DNA from: Nitrosopumilus sp.
GTDB taxonomy: Archaea; Thermoproteota; Nitrososphaeria; Nitrososphaerales; Nitrosopumilaceae
Reading direction: 5' to 3'
Assembly: GCA_965218785.1 (NCBI GenBank)
Contig: OZ244650.1
Coordinates: 512,001 to 576,000 of the forward strand
Length of the DNA: 64,000 bases
In this document: piece by piece, positions 8,260-29,883 of the stretch
Position numbering within the stretch: position 1 is the stretch's first letter
Layout: each line of letters starts with the position of its first letter
Translations under genes and position numbers: made by a program
The notes under the pieces: model-generated
The model's input: the letters and a program-made list of their open reading frames with translations, nothing else
Databases searched by the model: none
What the model was told of the DNA's origin: nothing

Positions 8260-9582
8260 ATGTCTAGATTCCATAATTTAGATATGTCACAATACGATGT
8301 TGCCATTATCGGCGGAGGCATCCTGGGTACCTGTATCTCTAATTGGATTTCATCCCTTTATGACGCAGACGTATGCGTGATTGAAAAAGAATCAGATGTT
8401 GCCATGCATGCTAGCAGCAAAAATACGGCAGTCATCCACTCCCCGTTCTATCTGAATCCCAAAACAAAAAAAATCCTGGCAAAATCCTCACTCATCTCTT
8501 ATGACATGTGGGCCAAGCTTGCAAAAATCTCTGATGTTCCTTGGAATAGGACCGGGGTATTGGAATTGGCACTCGATGAGAATCAACACAAGAGTCTTGA
8601 AGAGTATGCACGGTGGGGCTGTGAAAATGGCATTCCTTCAAATGATATAGAACTTTTAGATGGCAGGGAGGTTTCTAAAATGGAGCCTAATGTGGTGTGT
8701 CACTCTGCAATTTTTTGCAGACGTGAGGTCTCCACTGACTTTGGCGCATTTACCCGTGCAATCAAAAAGGAATCAGAAAAACATGGAACGGATTTTCTTT
8801 TGGGACAAAACGTAAAAAATATCAAACGAAACGAAAACGATTCTTCAATAATTTTTGATGATGCCTCCAATGTTTCTGCTAAATTCATAATAAACTGTGC
8901 TGGAGGCAACTCCCTGGATATAGCACAAATGCTGGGTCTTGCAACTGACTACTCTGATCTTCATTTCAGGGGCGAATACTGGATTGCAGACTCTCCGTAC
9001 AATGATCTTGTAAGGACCACAGTCTACACGGTTGCAGAATTCAAAGGATATCCATTTTTAGATCCACACTGGATAAAAAAGGCAAATGGACAAACCGAAA
9101 TTGGTCCTAATGCGGTTCCGGTTCCAAGTCCTGAAACTTATGAGGGATACATCGGTGATATTGGAACCTCGCTTTTGAAATTAAAAGATATAGTTACTGG
9201 CAATGCAAAAAAATTATTTTCTGACCCTGAATTCCTATCTATGATCTCCAAAGAATGGCTCAGCTCCTTATCGAAAACCGCGATGATTAGCCGCGTGCAA
9301 AAGTTCATTCCAAAAATTCAACCCGAATTCTTTTCACAAAAAGGAACTGCCGGTATACGTTCTCCAATTATTACTCCTGGAGGTAAATTCATGCCTGATG
9401 TCATGGAACTTGAAAACGAGCATTCCTTTAACATAATTAATTACAACTCCCCCGGGGCAACAGGGGCTCCCGCATATTCTGCATTTGTCATTAAAAAATT
9501 ACAAGAGAAGGGATTTTTGGATTTGAAGAAAGACACCAAAGAATCATTTTGGAATTTTGATGATGTTCTCAATCAAGCTTAA
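8260..9582 (+). CDS. FAD-dependent oxidoreductase, L-2-hydroxyglutarate oxidase (LhgO)-like
   Basis: IIGGGILG dinucleotide motif, HASSKNTAVIH, FRGEY, GPNA and NSPGATGA motifs; start may be 8284. Confidence 0.85.
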   Translation: MSRFHNLDMSQYDVAIIGGGILGTCISNWISSLYDADVCVIEKESDVAMHASSKNTAVIHSPFYLNPKTKKILAKSSLISYDMWAKLAKISDVPWNRTGVLELALDENQHKSLEEYARWGCENGIPSNDIELLDGREVSKMEPNVVCHSAIFCRREVSTDFGAFTRAIKKESEKHGTDFLLGQNVKNIKRNENDSSIIFDDASNVSAKFIINCAGGNSLDIAQMLGLATDYSDLHFRGEYWIADSPYNDLVRTTVYTVAEFKGYPFLDPHWIKKANGQTEIGPNAVPVPSPETYEGYIGDIGTSLLKLKDIVTGNAKKLFSDPEFLSMISKEWLSSLSKTAMISRVQKFIPKIQPEFFSQKGTAGIRSPIITPGGKFMPDVMELENEHSFNIINYNSPGATGAPAYSAFVIKKLQEKGFLDLKKDTKESFWNFDDVLNQA

Positions 9583-9608
9583 TATTCTGTAACATTCAAA
9601 GCTGTATT

Positions 9609-9896
9609 ATGCTTCCTGACAAATGCTCCATGACTGAAGAAGGAAAACAATGTCTCAACCCTCCGGAATTCATCGTGTCAATCCTTGCAGATAAGGACGA
9701 ATACATGGTTGGGGTTACATGCGAAAAGCACAAACAAATTGTATCTGGCAAGATTGGTGCTCTTCAAAATGAAGGCAAGATTTATGACGGAAAAATTAGT
9801 TTTTCCCCCGTAAAGGCAGTTGGAACTGATTGCATCCGTGGAGATGCCGATGATTTTGTTCAAATTGACATGAAACCTTCCCAAAAACTGAAATAA
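9609..9896 (+). CDS. Conserved hypothetical protein, possibly Zn-binding
   Basis: Cys...Cys...CxxH pattern; ORF fits between neighbouring genes. Confidence 0.7.
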   Translation: MLPDKCSMTEEGKQCLNPPEFIVSILADKDEYMVGVTCEKHKQIVSGKIGALQNEGKIYDGKISFSPVKAVGTDCIRGDADDFVQIDMKPSQKLK

Positions 9897-24153: not shown

Positions 24154-24197
24154 ATCTTGAACAAAATCCTCAATGTCCACATAAAAATCTAGCTAGT

Positions 24198-24408: not shown

Positions 24409-24868
24409 CTTTGGAGTTGGGTCAATTAACCATAAACCCTATTATTTAATTTTCATCCAATTCATCTACAATTCCATGGTCTAGCTTAGATTTAGTAGTA
24501 TTACTAATTCTTGTACCAGAATGTAGTAAATAAGAAGAAACATCTTCCTTACATCCATACAATGCTTTTATTCGTTTTTTTGTTCCTCATCCATTGTTAA
24601 TTATCTCCAATATCTCATCCTTTTATCACATTAAAATCAGCCTCAAAAAAGAGTATAATTGTAAGTACAATAGGAATAAAATATAGCCAAAGGCAGGCAT
24701 GCCTAATCTCTACATTGGAAACAAACCTTGGAATAAACATGCTTGAAGAAACAACAAACAAAGTTATCTCAATTTTGCGTTCCAGTAAACTTTCAGACAA
24801 TGCTCATACCTGAAGCATGTTAAATTAATTTTGAAGGTATCAAAGTTAATTTTTTGCCTTGTTTTGTA

Positions 24869-25657
24869 TTATTCAAATCTATTAATCCATCTTTGAATGA
24901 TCTCCCTTGATTCCTCTGGTAATTCTCCTTTAACTATTACTGGAAATTCAAATCTTTTTTGTAATTCCAACACTTGATTCTCTTGTCCAAAAGGATAGAT
25001 TTGCTGTTTAAATTGCCATAACAACCCCCCCTCTTTTTGAATTATATCCCGGTGAATCTCTTGCCATCTGCATGCAAATATTGGGTATATTCCCAACATT
25101 TTACACATTTCTAATTTTGTAACAATTTCTGATTTTGGTGTTTGACTTAGCATATTTTTTATTTCTACCCCTACTGTAATTTTTTTTATTTTATGTTCTG
25201 CAATAATATCTAACGTATGTCTAGTTCTGAACCACTCTTTTCCCCTATGTGATCTAACTTGTTTCTCTTTTAGTATCTCAAACCCATTTGCGCGTAATTC
25301 ATTTTTAACAAGATAATGAAGGTGCTCTCCTACCATCTTAGATGTCTTAACATCCGAATATCTGGAAATCCAATATCCCATATTTTCTATTTTTTTTACC
25401 ATGTTTTTTTCAATAAATTTGATTGGTAGTTTGGATGGAAAATAGAATTTTGCAGTGCCTACATCCCTAATATCATATTTTAGTGATTGAAGAATTCTTG
25501 ATTCCTCCAAATTATTTAACGCGTTTTTTACCTGACTTGCCGAATATCTTGTTTCTAGCATTATCTGTATGGTTGATTCATGTCTTGGTGTTTTTTTTGG
25601 ACGGTTTGAACTATCAAAAAAAAGTTCGATTATCCTTTTTTTTAACTCAACATCCAT
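24869..25657 (-). CDS. Winged-helix-like N-terminus + PD-(D/E)XK restriction-endonuclease-fold protein
   Basis: N-terminal ...SQVKNALNNLEESRIL...TAKFY wHTH pattern; GEHL, LDIIA and VEIKN nuclease motifs; probable start ATG 25657 (ORF is open to 25696). Confidence 0.72.
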   Translation of the reverse strand: MDVELKKRIIELFFDSSNRPKKTPRHESTIQIMLETRYSASQVKNALNNLEESRILQSLKYDIRDVGTAKFYFPSKLPIKFIEKNMVKKIENMGYWISRYSDVKTSKMVGEHLHYLVKNELRANGFEILKEKQVRSHRGKEWFRTRHTLDIIAEHKIKKITVGVEIKNMLSQTPKSEIVTKLEMCKMLGIYPIFACRWQEIHRDIIQKEGGLLWQFKQQIYPFGQENQVLELQKRFEFPVIVKGELPEESREIIQRWINRFE

Positions 25658-25665
25658 GCTTTTTT

Positions 25666-25695
25666 TGCGTAAAACATGAATTTGTATTTTACGCA
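25666..25695. promoter_or_regulatory. Palindrome TGCGTAAAA-N12-TTTTACGCA, putative operator of the nuclease gene
   Basis: Perfect 9-bp arms, 8 nt upstream of the probable ATG 25657. Confidence 0.6.
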
Positions 25696-25772
25696 TTTTA
25701 ATTGCTTATTTTATGCCTATTTTTCTAATTATTTAAATGAGCCAGATTCTATAATTCTGCTTAGATATTATA

Positions 25773-25889
25773 GTCAAGATCTTACAATGCTAATCCATGA
25801 TTAATTTAGCACATAACTTTTGTCAAATTTTATAATGTAAGTATTATATTTGCTAAAATATGCTAAAAATAGCACCATAAGATCTTGAC
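25773..25889. promoter_or_regulatory. Nested inverted repeats in the divergent promoter of the ATPase-toxin operon
   Basis: GTCAAGATCTTA (25773-84) and TAAGATCTTGAC (25878-89) are perfect inverted repeats. Two 24-bp boxes are also present: TGCTAA-N12-TTAGCA (25788-811) and TGCTAA-N12-ATAGCA (25851-874). Confidence 0.65.
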
Positions 25890-27800
25890 ATGACAGAAAA
25901 AACAACTGTGGATATCACACCTGATAAAAGCCTAATTCAGAAACTAGGCCTTACTGGATACAGAACTGCAGAAGCTATCTCTGAATTATTGGATAATTCA
26001 ATAGATGCAAGAATTTCAGGCCAAACTCAACGAATAGATGTCGTTTTAGATTATAGCAGAAAAGTCATATCGATATCTGACGGTGGTCTTGGAATGAATC
26101 TTGAAGAATTAAAAAATGGATTAACCATAGCGAAAGGTACAAAATTTGAAAAAGGGAAACTAGGTAAATTTGGATTGGGAATGAAAAGTGCCTGTTCTAC
26201 TTTGGGAAAGGAATTTACAATTACCACATCAAAACCTGATTCGAATTTGGAATTTTTTATACATTATGATGAGAAAAAATGGCTTGATGATTCATCAAGT
26301 ACTTGGCAAAATTTTGAAATTGAAACCAGTAAAAAAACACGTCCAGGGCATGGTACAACAATTAGAATTAGAAAACTAAATGTCCCATTATACCCAAATC
26401 AGTCATCTACATTAAGAAAAAATTTTGGAATACGATATGAACCATACATAAAATCTAATCAAATTTCTTTGTATATTAATTCAAGAGAATGTAAAGCACT
26501 AGAAATTTTAATCCAACCCGAAAGTAAACAGGAATTAGAGATAGAACTAGAGAATAATAATTATCTGAGAGGGTATATAGGATTGTTAGAGAAACGTTCC
26601 ATAAGAGGTGATTATGGAATTCATTTATACAAAAATGATAGGTTAATCAAGGCTTTTGACAAATTTGGCATACGTAGTCATCCTGAAGTTGCTAAAATAA
26701 TGGGTGAACTTCATCTTGATCATGTCCCAGTTAATTTCCATAAAACTGGTTTTATAGAGGAATCTTTAGAATACAGAGAAGCATTACATGTATTCAAAAC
26801 AGATCCTAAAGTTGTTAAGGCATTACGTAGTTCAATCAGTAAGGCCCCCCCTGCAACCTCTATCCAATCAGTCTTAAATTATTTTGTTAATGACAAAACA
26901 AAAGGAAAAATAAAAACCAGAATGAGCAATACCAACTCCAAAATTTTACTCAGCAAGGCAGATTCTTATGATATTCAATATGGGACAAAAAAAATTGAAT
27001 TTGATTTTGAAAATGGGAATGATGGTGAATTATATCGTATTGAAAGAATGCCTAATGGAGCAAAAATCAAAATCAACAGAAAAAGCCCAATTTTTACGAT
27101 AATTGGCAATCCCCTGTTCCTTATAGGCATGATAGAATTGGAGGTTAAAACCATAATAGATGATCCTGTAAAATACCGGGATTTTTTGAGAGAAAGAAAC
27201 GCCAATTGGAATAAATTCGTACAGGATTGGTCTGAAAAACAAGAAAAAATAACGAAAAAAAAGTCTCCTAAAGTAATTCCATTACTTAATTATTCACTAG
27301 TTGATGATTTGGGTGAACTACATGCATTTTTGAAGGAGACATTTGAATTTAATTTTCAATTTACGGCCCTTAGTACACTTGCACCATATTTACAAAATGC
27401 ATACAACAAAATGATCTATAATGTGGAGACTGTTAGAAACACCGGTCAGAATCTATATGATTTGTTAATTGATTATGGCGGTATGGAATTTACTGTTCTT
27501 CTAAATCCCAAAACTGAGGATATACAAAAAGCATTAGAATATTCTGAAAAAAAGAAGTTTATTGTAATTAGAGAATACTCTAACGTATCCAAAGATACGT
27601 GGGCTCCACCAGATAAAGCATGGTTGGATTTATTTGGAGAAATGAAACGTGGTTCATATTATATCAGGAGTGATGAATTGACAAATATTCTTGATAATTT
27701 ATTAGAAAAGCGTCTTACAAATCAAAATAGATTGGAAACTATAGCCAGACATAAAAATATGATAAATGAATTAAAGGTGTATTTGGGGAATACTGGATAA
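25890..27800 (+). CDS. MORC-type GHKL ATPase (HATPase_c_3 + S5-like) fused to a C-terminal type IV TA antitoxin-like (AbiEi/DUF6577-like) domain
   Basis: GHKL boxes ELLDNSIDA, DGGLGM, GKFGLGMK and GTTI; MORC S5 region GIHLYKNDRLI..GELHL..VNFHKTGF; C-terminal VLLNP..IVIRE..PPDKAWLDL..ELTNIL..RLETIARHK. Confidence 0.8.
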   Translation: MTEKTTVDITPDKSLIQKLGLTGYRTAEAISELLDNSIDARISGQTQRIDVVLDYSRKVISISDGGLGMNLEELKNGLTIAKGTKFEKGKLGKFGLGMKSACSTLGKEFTITTSKPDSNLEFFIHYDEKKWLDDSSSTWQNFEIETSKKTRPGHGTTIRIRKLNVPLYPNQSSTLRKNFGIRYEPYIKSNQISLYINSRECKALEILIQPESKQELEIELENNNYLRGYIGLLEKRSIRGDYGIHLYKNDRLIKAFDKFGIRSHPEVAKIMGELHLDHVPVNFHKTGFIEESLEYREALHVFKTDPKVVKALRSSISKAPPATSIQSVLNYFVNDKTKGKIKTRMSNTNSKILLSKADSYDIQYGTKKIEFDFENGNDGELYRIERMPNGAKIKINRKSPIFTIIGNPLFLIGMIELEVKTIIDDPVKYRDFLRERNANWNKFVQDWSEKQEKITKKKSPKVIPLLNYSLVDDLGELHAFLKETFEFNFQFTALSTLAPYLQNAYNKMIYNVETVRNTGQNLYDLLIDYGGMEFTVLLNPKTEDIQKALEYSEKKKFIVIREYSNVSKDTWAPPDKAWLDLFGEMKRGSYYIRSDELTNILDNLLEKRLTNQNRLETIARHKNMINELKVYLGNTG

Positions 27801-28921
27801 TGACATATCATTTTTCAACTGAATTAGAAAAAGACAATATAGAAAGAATCGCGAATAAATTTAATTTTGCAAATCCATTATACGTTGAAAAATTCATCAT
27901 GGATTTTGAAATGAATTATCACATTTCTCAAAATATTGATTGTTTGTTACGGGGTGGTATGTGCATGCCGTTTCATTCAGAGTTGAAAGTGAGACGATTA
28001 AGTATAGATATTGATTTGTTAACTGGTTTGGGTGTAGATGAAATACACGAGGCGATGGAAGAACTAGATAATAAATTACCAGATGTAAAAATTATAAAAC
28101 ATGAACCGAGAAATCCATACCCAATTCCCAATCTAGCCTCGTATTATGTTGAGTATGATTCCTGTTTTGGTAAACCTGAAACAGTGAAAATTGATTATTT
28201 GTGTGGTTTTTCATCAAATCTCCCAACACAAACTATTTCCAATGAACAAGAAATTATTGAATTCAAAATTGACTATCCTGCAAAAATTTTAACACGTGGT
28301 GCAATAATTGGGGATAAAATCACTACTCTTGCACTTGAAAAAATTGGTTTACAAAAATCAAAATTCCATGATATACCTAAGCAAATCTATGATATTGCAA
28401 CCTTGTTGAAAGGTGCTACAGAAAATGACATTAGTGAATCTTTGGATGCATTCATAACTCTTACTGGATTCAAAGTTAAAATATTTGGAAATGGGCTTTA
28501 TACGATTGGTGAAATAATTGACAGAATTAATTCTTCAATTCAAGGCTTATTTTCATTTAAATCCACTTTGACTACTACGGATGATTACGAGGGGTTTTTT
28601 GGTTCTTTTACAGGAACCTATCTTAATAGTACACAACGGTATAAAAAAACTCAACACATTTCCGATATTTTATTGGTATGGTTTTATGGAATTATTTTAA
28701 AAAAATTCTTTGAACATTCTATTTCAAAACAAGAAGCGGCTGCAAAAATATTTTCTATGGTTAGATCATATGATGTCATTCTTAATTCAAGTGTTGAAGA
28801 AAAAAAATCTACTAGCGAAGATCTTCTTAATACTATGCCAGAACTTTCATTTAAAAAAAATATTCTTAATGGAGTTCCTGCAGAACAGGTATTTGTTATA
28901 AACGAAATTTTTTCAGATTAA
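27800..28921 (+). CDS. AbiEii/AbiGii (MenT-like) nucleotidyltransferase toxin
   Basis: LRGG, RLSIDID, KIDY, GDKITTLA and KQIYDI motifs; TAATG stop/start overlap with the upstream gene. Confidence 0.88.
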   Translation: MTYHFSTELEKDNIERIANKFNFANPLYVEKFIMDFEMNYHISQNIDCLLRGGMCMPFHSELKVRRLSIDIDLLTGLGVDEIHEAMEELDNKLPDVKIIKHEPRNPYPIPNLASYYVEYDSCFGKPETVKIDYLCGFSSNLPTQTISNEQEIIEFKIDYPAKILTRGAIIGDKITTLALEKIGLQKSKFHDIPKQIYDIATLLKGATENDISESLDAFITLTGFKVKIFGNGLYTIGEIIDRINSSIQGLFSFKSTLTTTDDYEGFFGSFTGTYLNSTQRYKKTQHISDILLVWFYGIILKKFFEHSISKQEAAAKIFSMVRSYDVILNSSVEEKKSTSEDLLNTMPELSFKKNILNGVPAEQVFVINEIFSD

Positions 28922-29196
28922 ACATACCACACAATTTTGATATTTTTTGTATTGGATCTCTTGCGTAATTGAATCAATTTTATCAAATTACACGCATTTC
29001 TTCACAGCAAGATCTCAAAGCTGGGAATAACATACAATCCCATGTACATTGGGTGTTCATGAGTGTCAGTTGTGGGATTATTATCACGATCCTAGAGGAG
29101 GAAGAAAAAAGAGAGTATACTAGCATCCAAACCAGTCAGAAGACCCAGTACCGTTTTGCGTATAGATAAATACCGATATACCGTGACTCCTTTGAG

Positions 29197-29883
29197 ATGG
29201 TCGATGTTACATTGGTAAGATACTCCTTTGAGGGTGAAAAGTTTGAACTCTTGGTAAAGCCTGATCCTGCACTAGATTACAAGCTGGGAAAAAAGAAGGA
29301 AATTTCTGCAGTTTTGGTTTCAGAAGACATCTACACTGATTCAGGAAAGGGCACAAAGCCATCTGCTGAAAAACTGCTCAAGGTCTTTAAAACCGAAGAC
29401 CTGACTGAGATTGCTCAGATAATTATGCAGAAAGGTGATCTGAATCTTACGACTGATCAAAGACGGAAAATGGTTGATGACAAGAAAAAACAGATTGTAG
29501 AGTTCATTGCAAAGACCTACGTAGATCCCAAGACCCATCTACCTCATCCTCCACTGCGAATAGAGAATGCCATGAAGGATGCCAGAATCTCAGTCGAACC
29601 ACAAAAGGGTGTAGAGGAACAGGTAAAAGACATCGTTGAAAAACTGCGTTCTATAATCGCATTAAAATCCGAGAACCTCACATTGGAGATTATAATTCCT
29701 GCACAATTTGCCTCCCAGTCCTACTCTGTTCTCAAATCCGTAGGATCCCTCAAAAACGAAGAGTGGCAAAACAACGGTTCCCTAAAAGCAATACTTGAAA
29801 TACCTGCTGCGGCAAGACCAAACGTGATAGACAGATTGGGTTCTATAACCAAGGGTTCTGCTTTAGTTGAGGTAATGAAATGA
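29197..29883 (+). CDS. Ribosome maturation factor SBDS/Sdo1
   Basis: GEKFELLV, LTTDQRR and DPKTHLPHPPLRIENAM motifs; first gene of the exosome cluster. Confidence 0.96.
   Translation: MVDVTLVRYSFEGEKFELLVKPDPALDYKLGKKKEISAVLVSEDIYTDSGKGTKPSAEKLLKVFKTEDLTEIAQIIMQKGDLNLTTDQRRKMVDDKKKQIVEFIAKTYVDPKTHLPHPPLRIENAMKDARISVEPQKGVEEQVKDIVEKLRSIIALKSENLTLEIIIPAQFASQSYSVLKSVGSLKNEEWQNNGSLKAILEIPAAARPNVIDRLGSITKGSALVEVMK

Follow-up and report, generated by a model that had tools for sequence, protein, structure and literature searches.

Few defence or toxin-antitoxin (TA) systems are as abundant as AbiE. In the classical AbiEi-AbiEii pairs of Streptococcus agalactiae and the Lactococcus plasmid pNP40, which act in abortive infection and were originally assigned to type IV TA but since reclassified as type VII, a two-gene operon encodes the antitoxin AbiEi and the DUF1814 toxin AbiEii, whose phospho-acceptor is Thr65. 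In the MenA3-MenT3 (TakA-TglT) pair of Mycobacterium tuberculosis, the antitoxin, itself homologous to AbiEi, induces phosphorylation of a toxin with an R-x-S motif (R76/S78). Both MenA3 and AbiEi are reported to induce auto-phosphorylation of the toxin; nucleotide binding was not seen for AbiEi, and MenA3 lacks notable kinase motifs (PMC11375011, 2024; preprint 10.64898/2026.01.19.700257, 2026). In AbiEi, the C-terminal domain alone is responsible for the antitoxic activity, and it is positioned over the active site of the toxin (10.64898/2026.01.19.700257). A separate group of proteins, the paraMORCs, is built on a GHKL ATPase and an S5-fold domain with exchangeable partner domains (Iyer et al. 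2008, PMC2292703). The C-terminal partners described are nucleases, TIR and similar domains, and neither "nucleotidyltransferase" nor "toxin" occurs in that paper (PMC2292703). Here we describe a locus that contains elements of both, situated in a 64,000-nucleotide (nt) stretch of a Nitrosopumilus sp. genome (contig OZ244650.1, positions 512,001 to 576,000; hereafter, the window). Its central gene encodes a 636-amino-acid (aa) fusion protein, in which a GHKL-S5 ATPase module is followed by an AbiEi-like C-terminal domain, and lies directly upstream of a gene for an AbiEii-type nucleotidyltransferase (Table 1).

The locus shares with the classical AbiE systems a two-gene operon, a DUF1814 toxin and a match to the PADLOC AbiEi models, but it differs in its archaeal host, in the serine that occupies the phospho-acceptor position of the toxin, in the added ATPase and in the lack of a winged helix-turn-helix (wHTH). 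Its toxin has the R-x-S arrangement of MenT3, whereas the architecture of the fusion differs from that of MenA3, which is not now regarded as a kinase and whose H98-I108 loop cannot be mapped onto the window protein. With the prokaryotic MORC and paraMORC proteins (Iyer, Abhiman and Aravind 2008) it has in common the N-terminal GHKL and S5 domains, intact motifs and a variable C-terminal partner. MzaB, from the MZA system, resembles the fusion solely in the first ~100 aa, with 38.8 bits where the cut-off is 850.

The initial annotation of this DNA likened the last ~170 aa of the fusion to antitoxin C-terminal domains, and profile searches bear out the homology. The interval it gave, 27280-27800, corresponds to residues 464/465-636 and the TAA stop of the 636-aa open reading frame (ORF), and all of the strings that it quoted (EKQEKITKKKSPKV, YNVETVR, VLLNP, FIVIRE, PPDKAWLDLF, ELTNIL and NQNRLETIARHK) occur in the translation. 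Searched alone, the domain matches Pfam DUF6577 (PF20217) over model positions 38-200 of 204 with 30.0 bits (E 5.3e-7; cut-off, 27.8); within the whole protein, the score is 26.0 bits, slightly under the cut-off. It also matches the PADLOC AbiEi model PDLC02235 (E 9e-7) at model positions 75-236 of 240, all of which lie past the wHTH. Among 52 related domains, DUF6577 (E ≤ 1) and PDLC02235 are each matched by 31, and 12 further AbiEi models are matched by 1 to 22 members each, bringing the number of AbiEi models to 13; this PADLOC set is defined by genomic context, and a match to it differs from a match to a solved AbiEi. Chance similarity of the domain to AbiEi/DUF6577 was rejected on the E-values.

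The domain is also similar to stand-alone proteins that combine a wHTH with DUF6577. A profile alignment (hhalign) of the 52 fused domains with 47 of these proteins scored 99.9% (E 1e-36, 166 columns), with domain positions 4-173 aligned end to end to stand-alone positions 69-236. An F-x-[FI]-T-G/A-L-S strand-helix, an I-R-E motif and an E-[KR]-A-x-x-D-L motif are conserved in both groups, the last of these being the P/T-x-E/D-K-x-x-x-D pattern that had been recognized by eye. The fusion departs from the usual DUF6577 architecture: it lacks the wHTH and the part that corresponds to the first ~37 positions of the model, and the match comes after 464 aa of other domains. No helix-turn-helix (HTH) family matched anywhere in the 636-aa protein in Pfam, PADLOC and NCBIfam scans. 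The family scans, the stand-alone relatives and the alignment thus agree with the earlier proposal that a GHKL ATPase module has taken the place of the wHTH, and the basic linker that was said to join the two is real, being disordered at residues 450-464. Judged from its sequence, the domain is very probably a true homologue of the AbiEi type. Its AlphaFold2 model (mean predicted local distance difference test [pLDDT] score, 92.1; predicted template modeling [pTM] score, 0.88) consists of four beta-alpha units and then a helical bundle.

A search of 1.84 billion representative sequences with the 52-domain profile returned 271 proteins at E ≤ 1e-3, comprising ~630-aa fusions and many proteins of 230-310 aa in which the domain is C-terminal. 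Of 70 relatives scanned with Pfam, 63 match DUF6577 and 23 have an AbiEi_4 wHTH at E ≤ 0.01 (7 above its cut-off); some of the remaining stand-alone relatives have a TrmB-, DeoR- or MarR-type HTH. These N-terminal wHTHs stand where the window protein has ~460 aa of GHKL, S5 and middle domains. Ten stand-alone relatives are named in their sources just "DUF6577 family protein" or "hypothetical protein." One stand-alone protein also gave a sub-threshold Pfam match (E 0.0086, 15.7 bits; cut-off, 25) to a clostridial toxin translocation domain, which was taken as chance. When the domain by itself was used in a word-based search of proteins 94-301 aa long, only two fragments of the fusion family were returned, an ESM Atlas look-up gave no usable match, and a Foldseek search of the domain model against the viral structures of BFVD gave nothing at E ≤ 0.001.

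The stand-alone proteins also resemble the window locus in what lies next to them. On annotated plasmids, four of six DUF6577 genes are immediately upstream of a gene of the AbiEii/AbiGii toxin family, and three of these four pairs overlap. Each of the four toxins is recognized by the window toxin family profile (E 1.5e-29 to 5.9e-33) and has RFS[IV]D[IV]D, at positions 63-65, in the place of the window motif, and the DUF6577 proteins paired with them match the domain profile (E 1e-7 to 2.5e-5). Such pairs, found for example on Chondrinema, Hymenobacter and Bernardetia plasmids, are like the window in gene order, in the C-terminal ~165 aa and in having an RxSxDxD toxin. The other two DUF6577 genes are on Bacteroidota plasmids next to large N-6 DNA methylase genes (L082 379-3086 and L084 1998-4702; numbers with the prefix L denote sampled loci), and their products do not match the window-family domain profile.

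The gene downstream of the fusion encodes a member of the AbiEii family (Pfam PF08843, E 1.8e-9, 38.3 bits [cut-off, 22.5]; PADLOC AbiEii, E 1.4e-16), for which a search of PDB sequences gave no meaningful match. Nine residues are invariant in all 37 toxins compared (G52, G53, R66, S68, D70, D72, K173, K194 and D198), and we take them to belong to motifs I-IV. The serine that the initial annotation had singled out in the RxSxDxD motif of the partner (RLSIDID) is among them; this residue, Ser68, is placed like the phospho-acceptor of MenT3 and in the same R-x-S context.

The pairing of the two genes is conserved across the Nitrosopumilaceae. A genome scan, from which 78 of 401 confirmed relatives were analyzed as loci, yielded 53 loci with the fusion, nearly all in metagenome-assembled genomes (MAGs) of Nitrosopumilaceae or Cenarchaeum, with one in a Dehalococcoidia MAG and one in an "uncultured archaeon"; 13 genomes have two loci. 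A full-length toxin ORF is present in 38 of the 53, directly downstream of the fusion in 37. The toxin is split by a ~1.4-kb insert in two loci, reduced to a truncated or frameshifted remnant in six and to a doubtful remnant in one, and absent from six. In eight, possibly nine, loci the toxin is broken while the fusion retains the conserved residues of the domain, and these residues are kept in 14 of the 15 loci that lack a full toxin, being those represented in the domain alignment. This asymmetric decay, in which the toxin is lost and the fusion is kept, fits the expectation for an antitoxin, in a sample that was seeded from the fusion and in which the reverse case is under-sampled.

Several of these loci have features of their own. 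The insert in the AbiEii gene of L037 (8275-9612, minus strand) encodes an IS605-type OrfB/TnpB protein (Cas12f1-like TNB domain, E 6e-18), and the fusion upstream of it is intact; the AbiEii gene of L042 (~8430-9750) is likewise split by a ~1.4-kb insertion. An unusual tandem occurs in a Cenarchaeum MAG (L045, 681-7920), where fusion-type genes of 577 and 700 aa flank a single AbiEii-like gene of 484 aa.

The N-terminal part of the fusion is a GHKL ATPase of the MORC type. Pfam HATPase_c_3 matches residues 24-127 (E 2.6e-19, 70 bits against a cut-off of 25), all four GHKL ATP-binding motifs are present, and E32, D35, N36, D39, D64, G68, G92, G95, G97, G155 and T156 do not vary among the 30 homologues compared. 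In these alignments, the active-site residues of both the ATPase and the toxin are intact. The match to Morc6_S5 at residues 218-293 is weak (E 6.1e-5, 23.5 bits, under the cut-off of 26.2), but an S5 lysine, K285, is invariant in the 30 homologues, and an S5-fold domain following the GHKL domain is indicated by the full-length model (pLDDT, 78; pTM, 0.50), which matches the N-terminal and middle regions of TRAP1/Hsp90, MORC4 (7k7t, TMt 0.55), SMCHD1 and MORC2 (E 1e-13 to 3e-15). The middle domain had no family match in Pfam, PADLOC or NCBIfam, and ESM Atlas gave unnamed clusters only.

Relatives of the ATPase module occur with other partners. In 22 bacterial loci, only the first ~300 aa are matched; among the nine such relatives scanned, HATPase_c_3 was found in nine, Morc6_S5 in eight and DUF6577 in none, and the modules are fused to, or encoded beside, an SDH-type protease, a DnaA_C/sigma-70 region 4 HTH, Hypoth_Ymh or PDDEXK_3. 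From its sequence relatives, then, the module appears to be a portable switch with exchangeable partners, as in the paraMORCs. Four of the arrangements, in Patescibacteria and related bacteria (L054, L058, L068 and L073), place GHKL and S5 domains next to, or in fusion with, a ClpP-like SDH protease, DnaA_C/sigma-70 region 4, Hypoth_Ymh or PDDEXK_3, and these may be further undescribed conflict systems of the paraMORC type.

On balance, we read the locus as a two-gene TA or abortive-infection module carried on a mobile cassette, in which the toxin-facing half of an AbiE antitoxin is tethered through a flexible linker to a MORC/paraMORC-like GHKL-S5 ATPase and its gene is translationally coupled to that of an AbiEii toxin. 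Its homology and gene context lead us to infer that residues 465-636 are antitoxic in the manner of the AbiEi C-terminal domain, and the domain probably neutralizes the toxin of the window. It would do so by docking on the active-site face of the toxin and keeping it inactive, whether by occlusion, by driving Ser68 to accept a phosphate from the nucleoside triphosphate bound by the toxin itself, or by both; the domain itself would not be a kinase. The initial annotation held that antitoxins of the TakA/MenA3 type are kinases, a view that is now out of date, as published work favors induced auto-phosphorylation of the toxin. The ATPase module would act as a sensor or switch in place of transcriptional control, with an ATP-driven conformational cycle, possibly on foreign DNA, determining whether the toxin stays held by the tethered domain or is let go. 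Once freed, the toxin would add nucleotides to the 3' ends of tRNAs and stop translation. That the ATPase gates neutralization in response to infection is a tentative and somewhat doubtful part of this scheme, and the coupling of ATPase state to toxin phosphorylation is an attractive hypothesis that we purely infer. In the PARIS system, the AriA ATPase scaffold keeps the tRNA-targeting AriB toxin inactive and frees it upon a phage trigger. The logic proposed for the window is similar, but the analogy is functional only, the PARIS families (an ABC ATPase and a Toprim nuclease) being unrelated.

The complex of the domain and the toxin, which the initial annotation had suggested modelling, was predicted with a score of 0.41, compared with 0.00 for the best of three controls. 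Three runs agreed in at least 97% of contacts, and the partner had a pLDDT of at least 86. Of 157 solved complexes, 116 reach the mark for this score, as do 2 of 215 mismatched pairs, and those that pass at 0.60 or less comprise 18 of the 157 solved complexes and both of the passing mismatches. The modelling favors the pairing weakly. Part of the score may be memory, because a complex of the same type (9HLO) has been reported as solved.

Several results weigh against reading the locus as an ATPase-tethered AbiE antitoxin and its toxin. Besides being a weak pass, the complex prediction gave no reported interface. A check for likeness of fold to a solved AbiEi, set beforehand, gave no match: a Foldseek search of the domain model against the PDB gave nothing at E ≤ 0.001, the best E was 0.044 and the structures matched were unrelated and Rossmann-like, and AbiEi (6Y8Q) was absent from the best 50 of at least 500 matches, as was the AbiEi:AbiEii complex 9HLO. 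The link to AbiEi therefore comes from sequence profiles and gene context, not from fold. The domain profile had no matches among PDB sequences, and the profile of the stand-alone family reached generic wHTH proteins only; with neither search arriving at an AbiEi chain and no detectable likeness to solved AbiEi in sequence or among the best 50 Foldseek matches, "AbiEi-like" denotes the DUF6577 branch of the context-defined AbiEi proteins. Equivalence to the AbiEi and MenA3 domains that have been studied is unproven, and the activating loop residues cannot be mapped. Nor does every AbiEi homologue work by phosphorylation, because MenA4 neither binds nor phosphorylates its own toxin (PMC11375011; 10.64898/2026.01.19.700257). 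The DUF6577 family is not exclusively a toxin partner, since two of the six plasmid genes precede an N-6 DNA methylase. Six of the 53 fusion loci have no toxin remnant, and the conserved residues persist in the five of these that the domain alignment includes; the domain may have another role, or it may act on a second copy, 13 genomes having two loci.

A simpler account is that the locus is a plain addiction module, in which the domain neutralizes the toxin and the GHKL part is no infection sensor but a DNA-binding, autoregulatory or stabilizing substitute for the wHTH. We consider this unlikely, although the mobility of the cassette, its varied genomic contexts and the loci in which the toxin has decayed beside an intact fusion all fit ordinary TA dynamics, and MORC-type ATPases act on DNA (Iyer 2008, PMC2292703). 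Further support for it comes from the region upstream of the fusion gene, which has nested inverted repeats around a TATA-like box. The outer arms are 43 nt long and 72% complementary, with perfect 12-nt ends (GTCAAGATCTTA/TAAGATCTTGAC); the inner repeat is TTTAGCACAT/ATATGCTAAA, and its arms (TTTAGCA(C/T)AT and ATATGCTAAA, at about -85 and -32) are kept at -85/-32 in L001, L002 and L053, whereas L007, L008, L011, L039 and L032 have different, TTTCGCAA-like arms at roughly the same positions. These repeats look like a possible co-varying operator despite the loss of the wHTH, and their conservation upstream of a protein without a wHTH would imply that something binds them. They are, however, confined to the clade nearest the window and are not family-wide; a 460-aa ATPase whose catalytic residues are all conserved is a costly stand-in for a 70-aa wHTH; and the pairing of the module in bacterial relatives with other putative effector or DNA-binding domains (a protease, PD-(D/E)XK, an HTH) points to a switch of conflict systems.

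It is less probable still that the domain is no antitoxin but an adaptor, with the ATPase recruiting and activating the nucleotidyltransferase as an effector, as in paraMORCs with fused nucleases or TIR domains, and the enzyme being harmless or inactive without the ATPase. Such an arrangement would be consistent with the other C-terminal or adjacent partners found among relatives of the N-terminal module (also in Iyer 2008, PMC2292703), with the occurrence of DUF6577 beside N-6 methylases and with the retention of the conserved domain in orphan fusions. But the toxin family is homologous to the AbiEii proteins that are paired with stand-alone DUF6577 in the classical order of antitoxin then toxin, and within the fusion-seeded sample decay mostly affects the nucleotidyltransferase and leaves the fusion whole, not the reverse. 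The GHKL superfamily includes protein kinases, and the module could itself phosphorylate Ser68 of the toxin, in the way of the GHKL serine kinases that act as anti-sigma factors, with the C-terminal domain holding the substrate. Intact ATP-binding motifs and a conserved phospho-acceptor serine would suit this role, yet we judge it highly improbable: the module belongs with the MORC/Hsp90/SMCHD1 ATPases, having an S5 domain and its conserved lysine, rather than with kinase-type GHKL proteins, the stand-alone relatives of the C-terminal domain lack an ATP-binding portion, and the literature points to a toxin that phosphorylates itself (PMC11375011; 10.64898/2026.01.19.700257).

Table 1. Features of the locus, in window coordinates.
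Feature	Coordinates	Strand	Remarks
Fusion ORF, 636 aa	25890-27800	+	With TAA stop
GHKL (Bergerat-fold) ATPase domain, aa 1-165	25890..26384	+	HATPase_c_3
S5-fold transducer-like domain, aa ~166-300	26385..26789	+	Morc6_S5 and structure model
Middle domain, aa ~301-449	26790..27236	+	Model: helices, four strands, two long helices
Disordered basic linker, aa 450-464	27237..27281	+	pLDDT <50 in full-length model
AbiEi-like (DUF6577) C-terminal domain without wHTH, aa 465-636	27282..27797	+	Central finding
AbiEii/DUF1814 nucleotidyltransferase toxin, 373 aa	27800..28921	+	Start overlaps upstream stop (TAATG)
R66-L-S68-I-D70-I-D72 active-site motif, candidate phospho-acceptor Ser68	27995..28015	+	RLSIDID, aa 66-72
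Nested inverted repeats around TATA-like TTTTATAAT, ending at fusion start codon	25773..25889		Possible operator
Low-GC three-gene mobile cassette (accessory ORF, ATPase-antitoxin fusion, toxin)	24861..28981		~4.1 kb
Accessory ORF, 275 aa, divergent from fusion gene	24869..25696	-	Outside conserved core

The window is archaeal and Nitrosopumilus-like, with Nitrosopumilus MAGs as its nearest relatives, and the locus sits between genes for a ribosomal protein and rpoD, which end at 24180, and SBDS and exosome genes, which start at 29197. The cassette has a G+C content of 0.31-0.33, compared with ~0.42 in its flanks, and its entire interval is 95.5% identical in DNA sequence to positions 4972-9097 of L001, from a related Nitrosopumilus MAG, with no similarity beyond the interval and with flanks in L001 that lack the rpoD and SBDS neighbors of the window. 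A ~50%-identical fusion occupies the SBDS-rpoD gap of another Nitrosopumilus MAG (L011, 1221-8476) in the opposite orientation, adjoined by merely a 75-aa remnant of the toxin. From the different context in L001 and the reversed fusion in L011, it follows that the cassette moves, and the SBDS-rpoD gap may be a recurrent insertion spot. No tRNA genes that could serve as integration sites lie close to the cassette. A scan for bacterial sigma-70 promoters and terminators did no better than on shuffled sequences, the model being a bacterial one that does not apply to an archaeon.

The accessory ORF had no match in Pfam or PADLOC and only weak, sub-threshold matches in NCBIfam. It travels with the 4.1-kb cassette and has homologues in only 4 of the 78 loci (L001, L003, L004 and L053). 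By eye, its product seems to have an HTH-like stretch at the N terminus, together with a D...E-x-K pattern (LDIIAE...VGVEIKN) recalling PD-(D/E)XK nucleases.

The fusion is a real and apparently undescribed variant of the AbiE type that is widespread in ammonia-oxidizing archaea; no publication describing an ATPase-AbiEi fusion or DUF6577 was found, judged mainly from titles and the openings of abstracts. It extends the paraMORC pattern of a core with exchangeable partners from nucleases to a TA toxin. How an AbiE toxin is freed is, to our knowledge, not known, and the natural exchange of a DNA-binding head for an ATPase offers a handle on whether ATP state or DNA binding controls its release. 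It is conceivable, if somewhat unlikely, that the locus represents a new class of archaeal immunity, in which a MORC-like clamp would sense invading nucleic acid and gate a tRNA-modifying AbiEii toxin through a tethered antitoxin domain, and thereby the first case of a GHKL ATPase placed on a type VII switch. The Nitrosopumilaceae, in which this module is widespread and unstudied, are globally important nitrifiers whose antiviral systems are poorly known; if the proposal is true, marine and sponge-associated ammonia-oxidizing archaea would commonly possess such an immune module, often in two copies.

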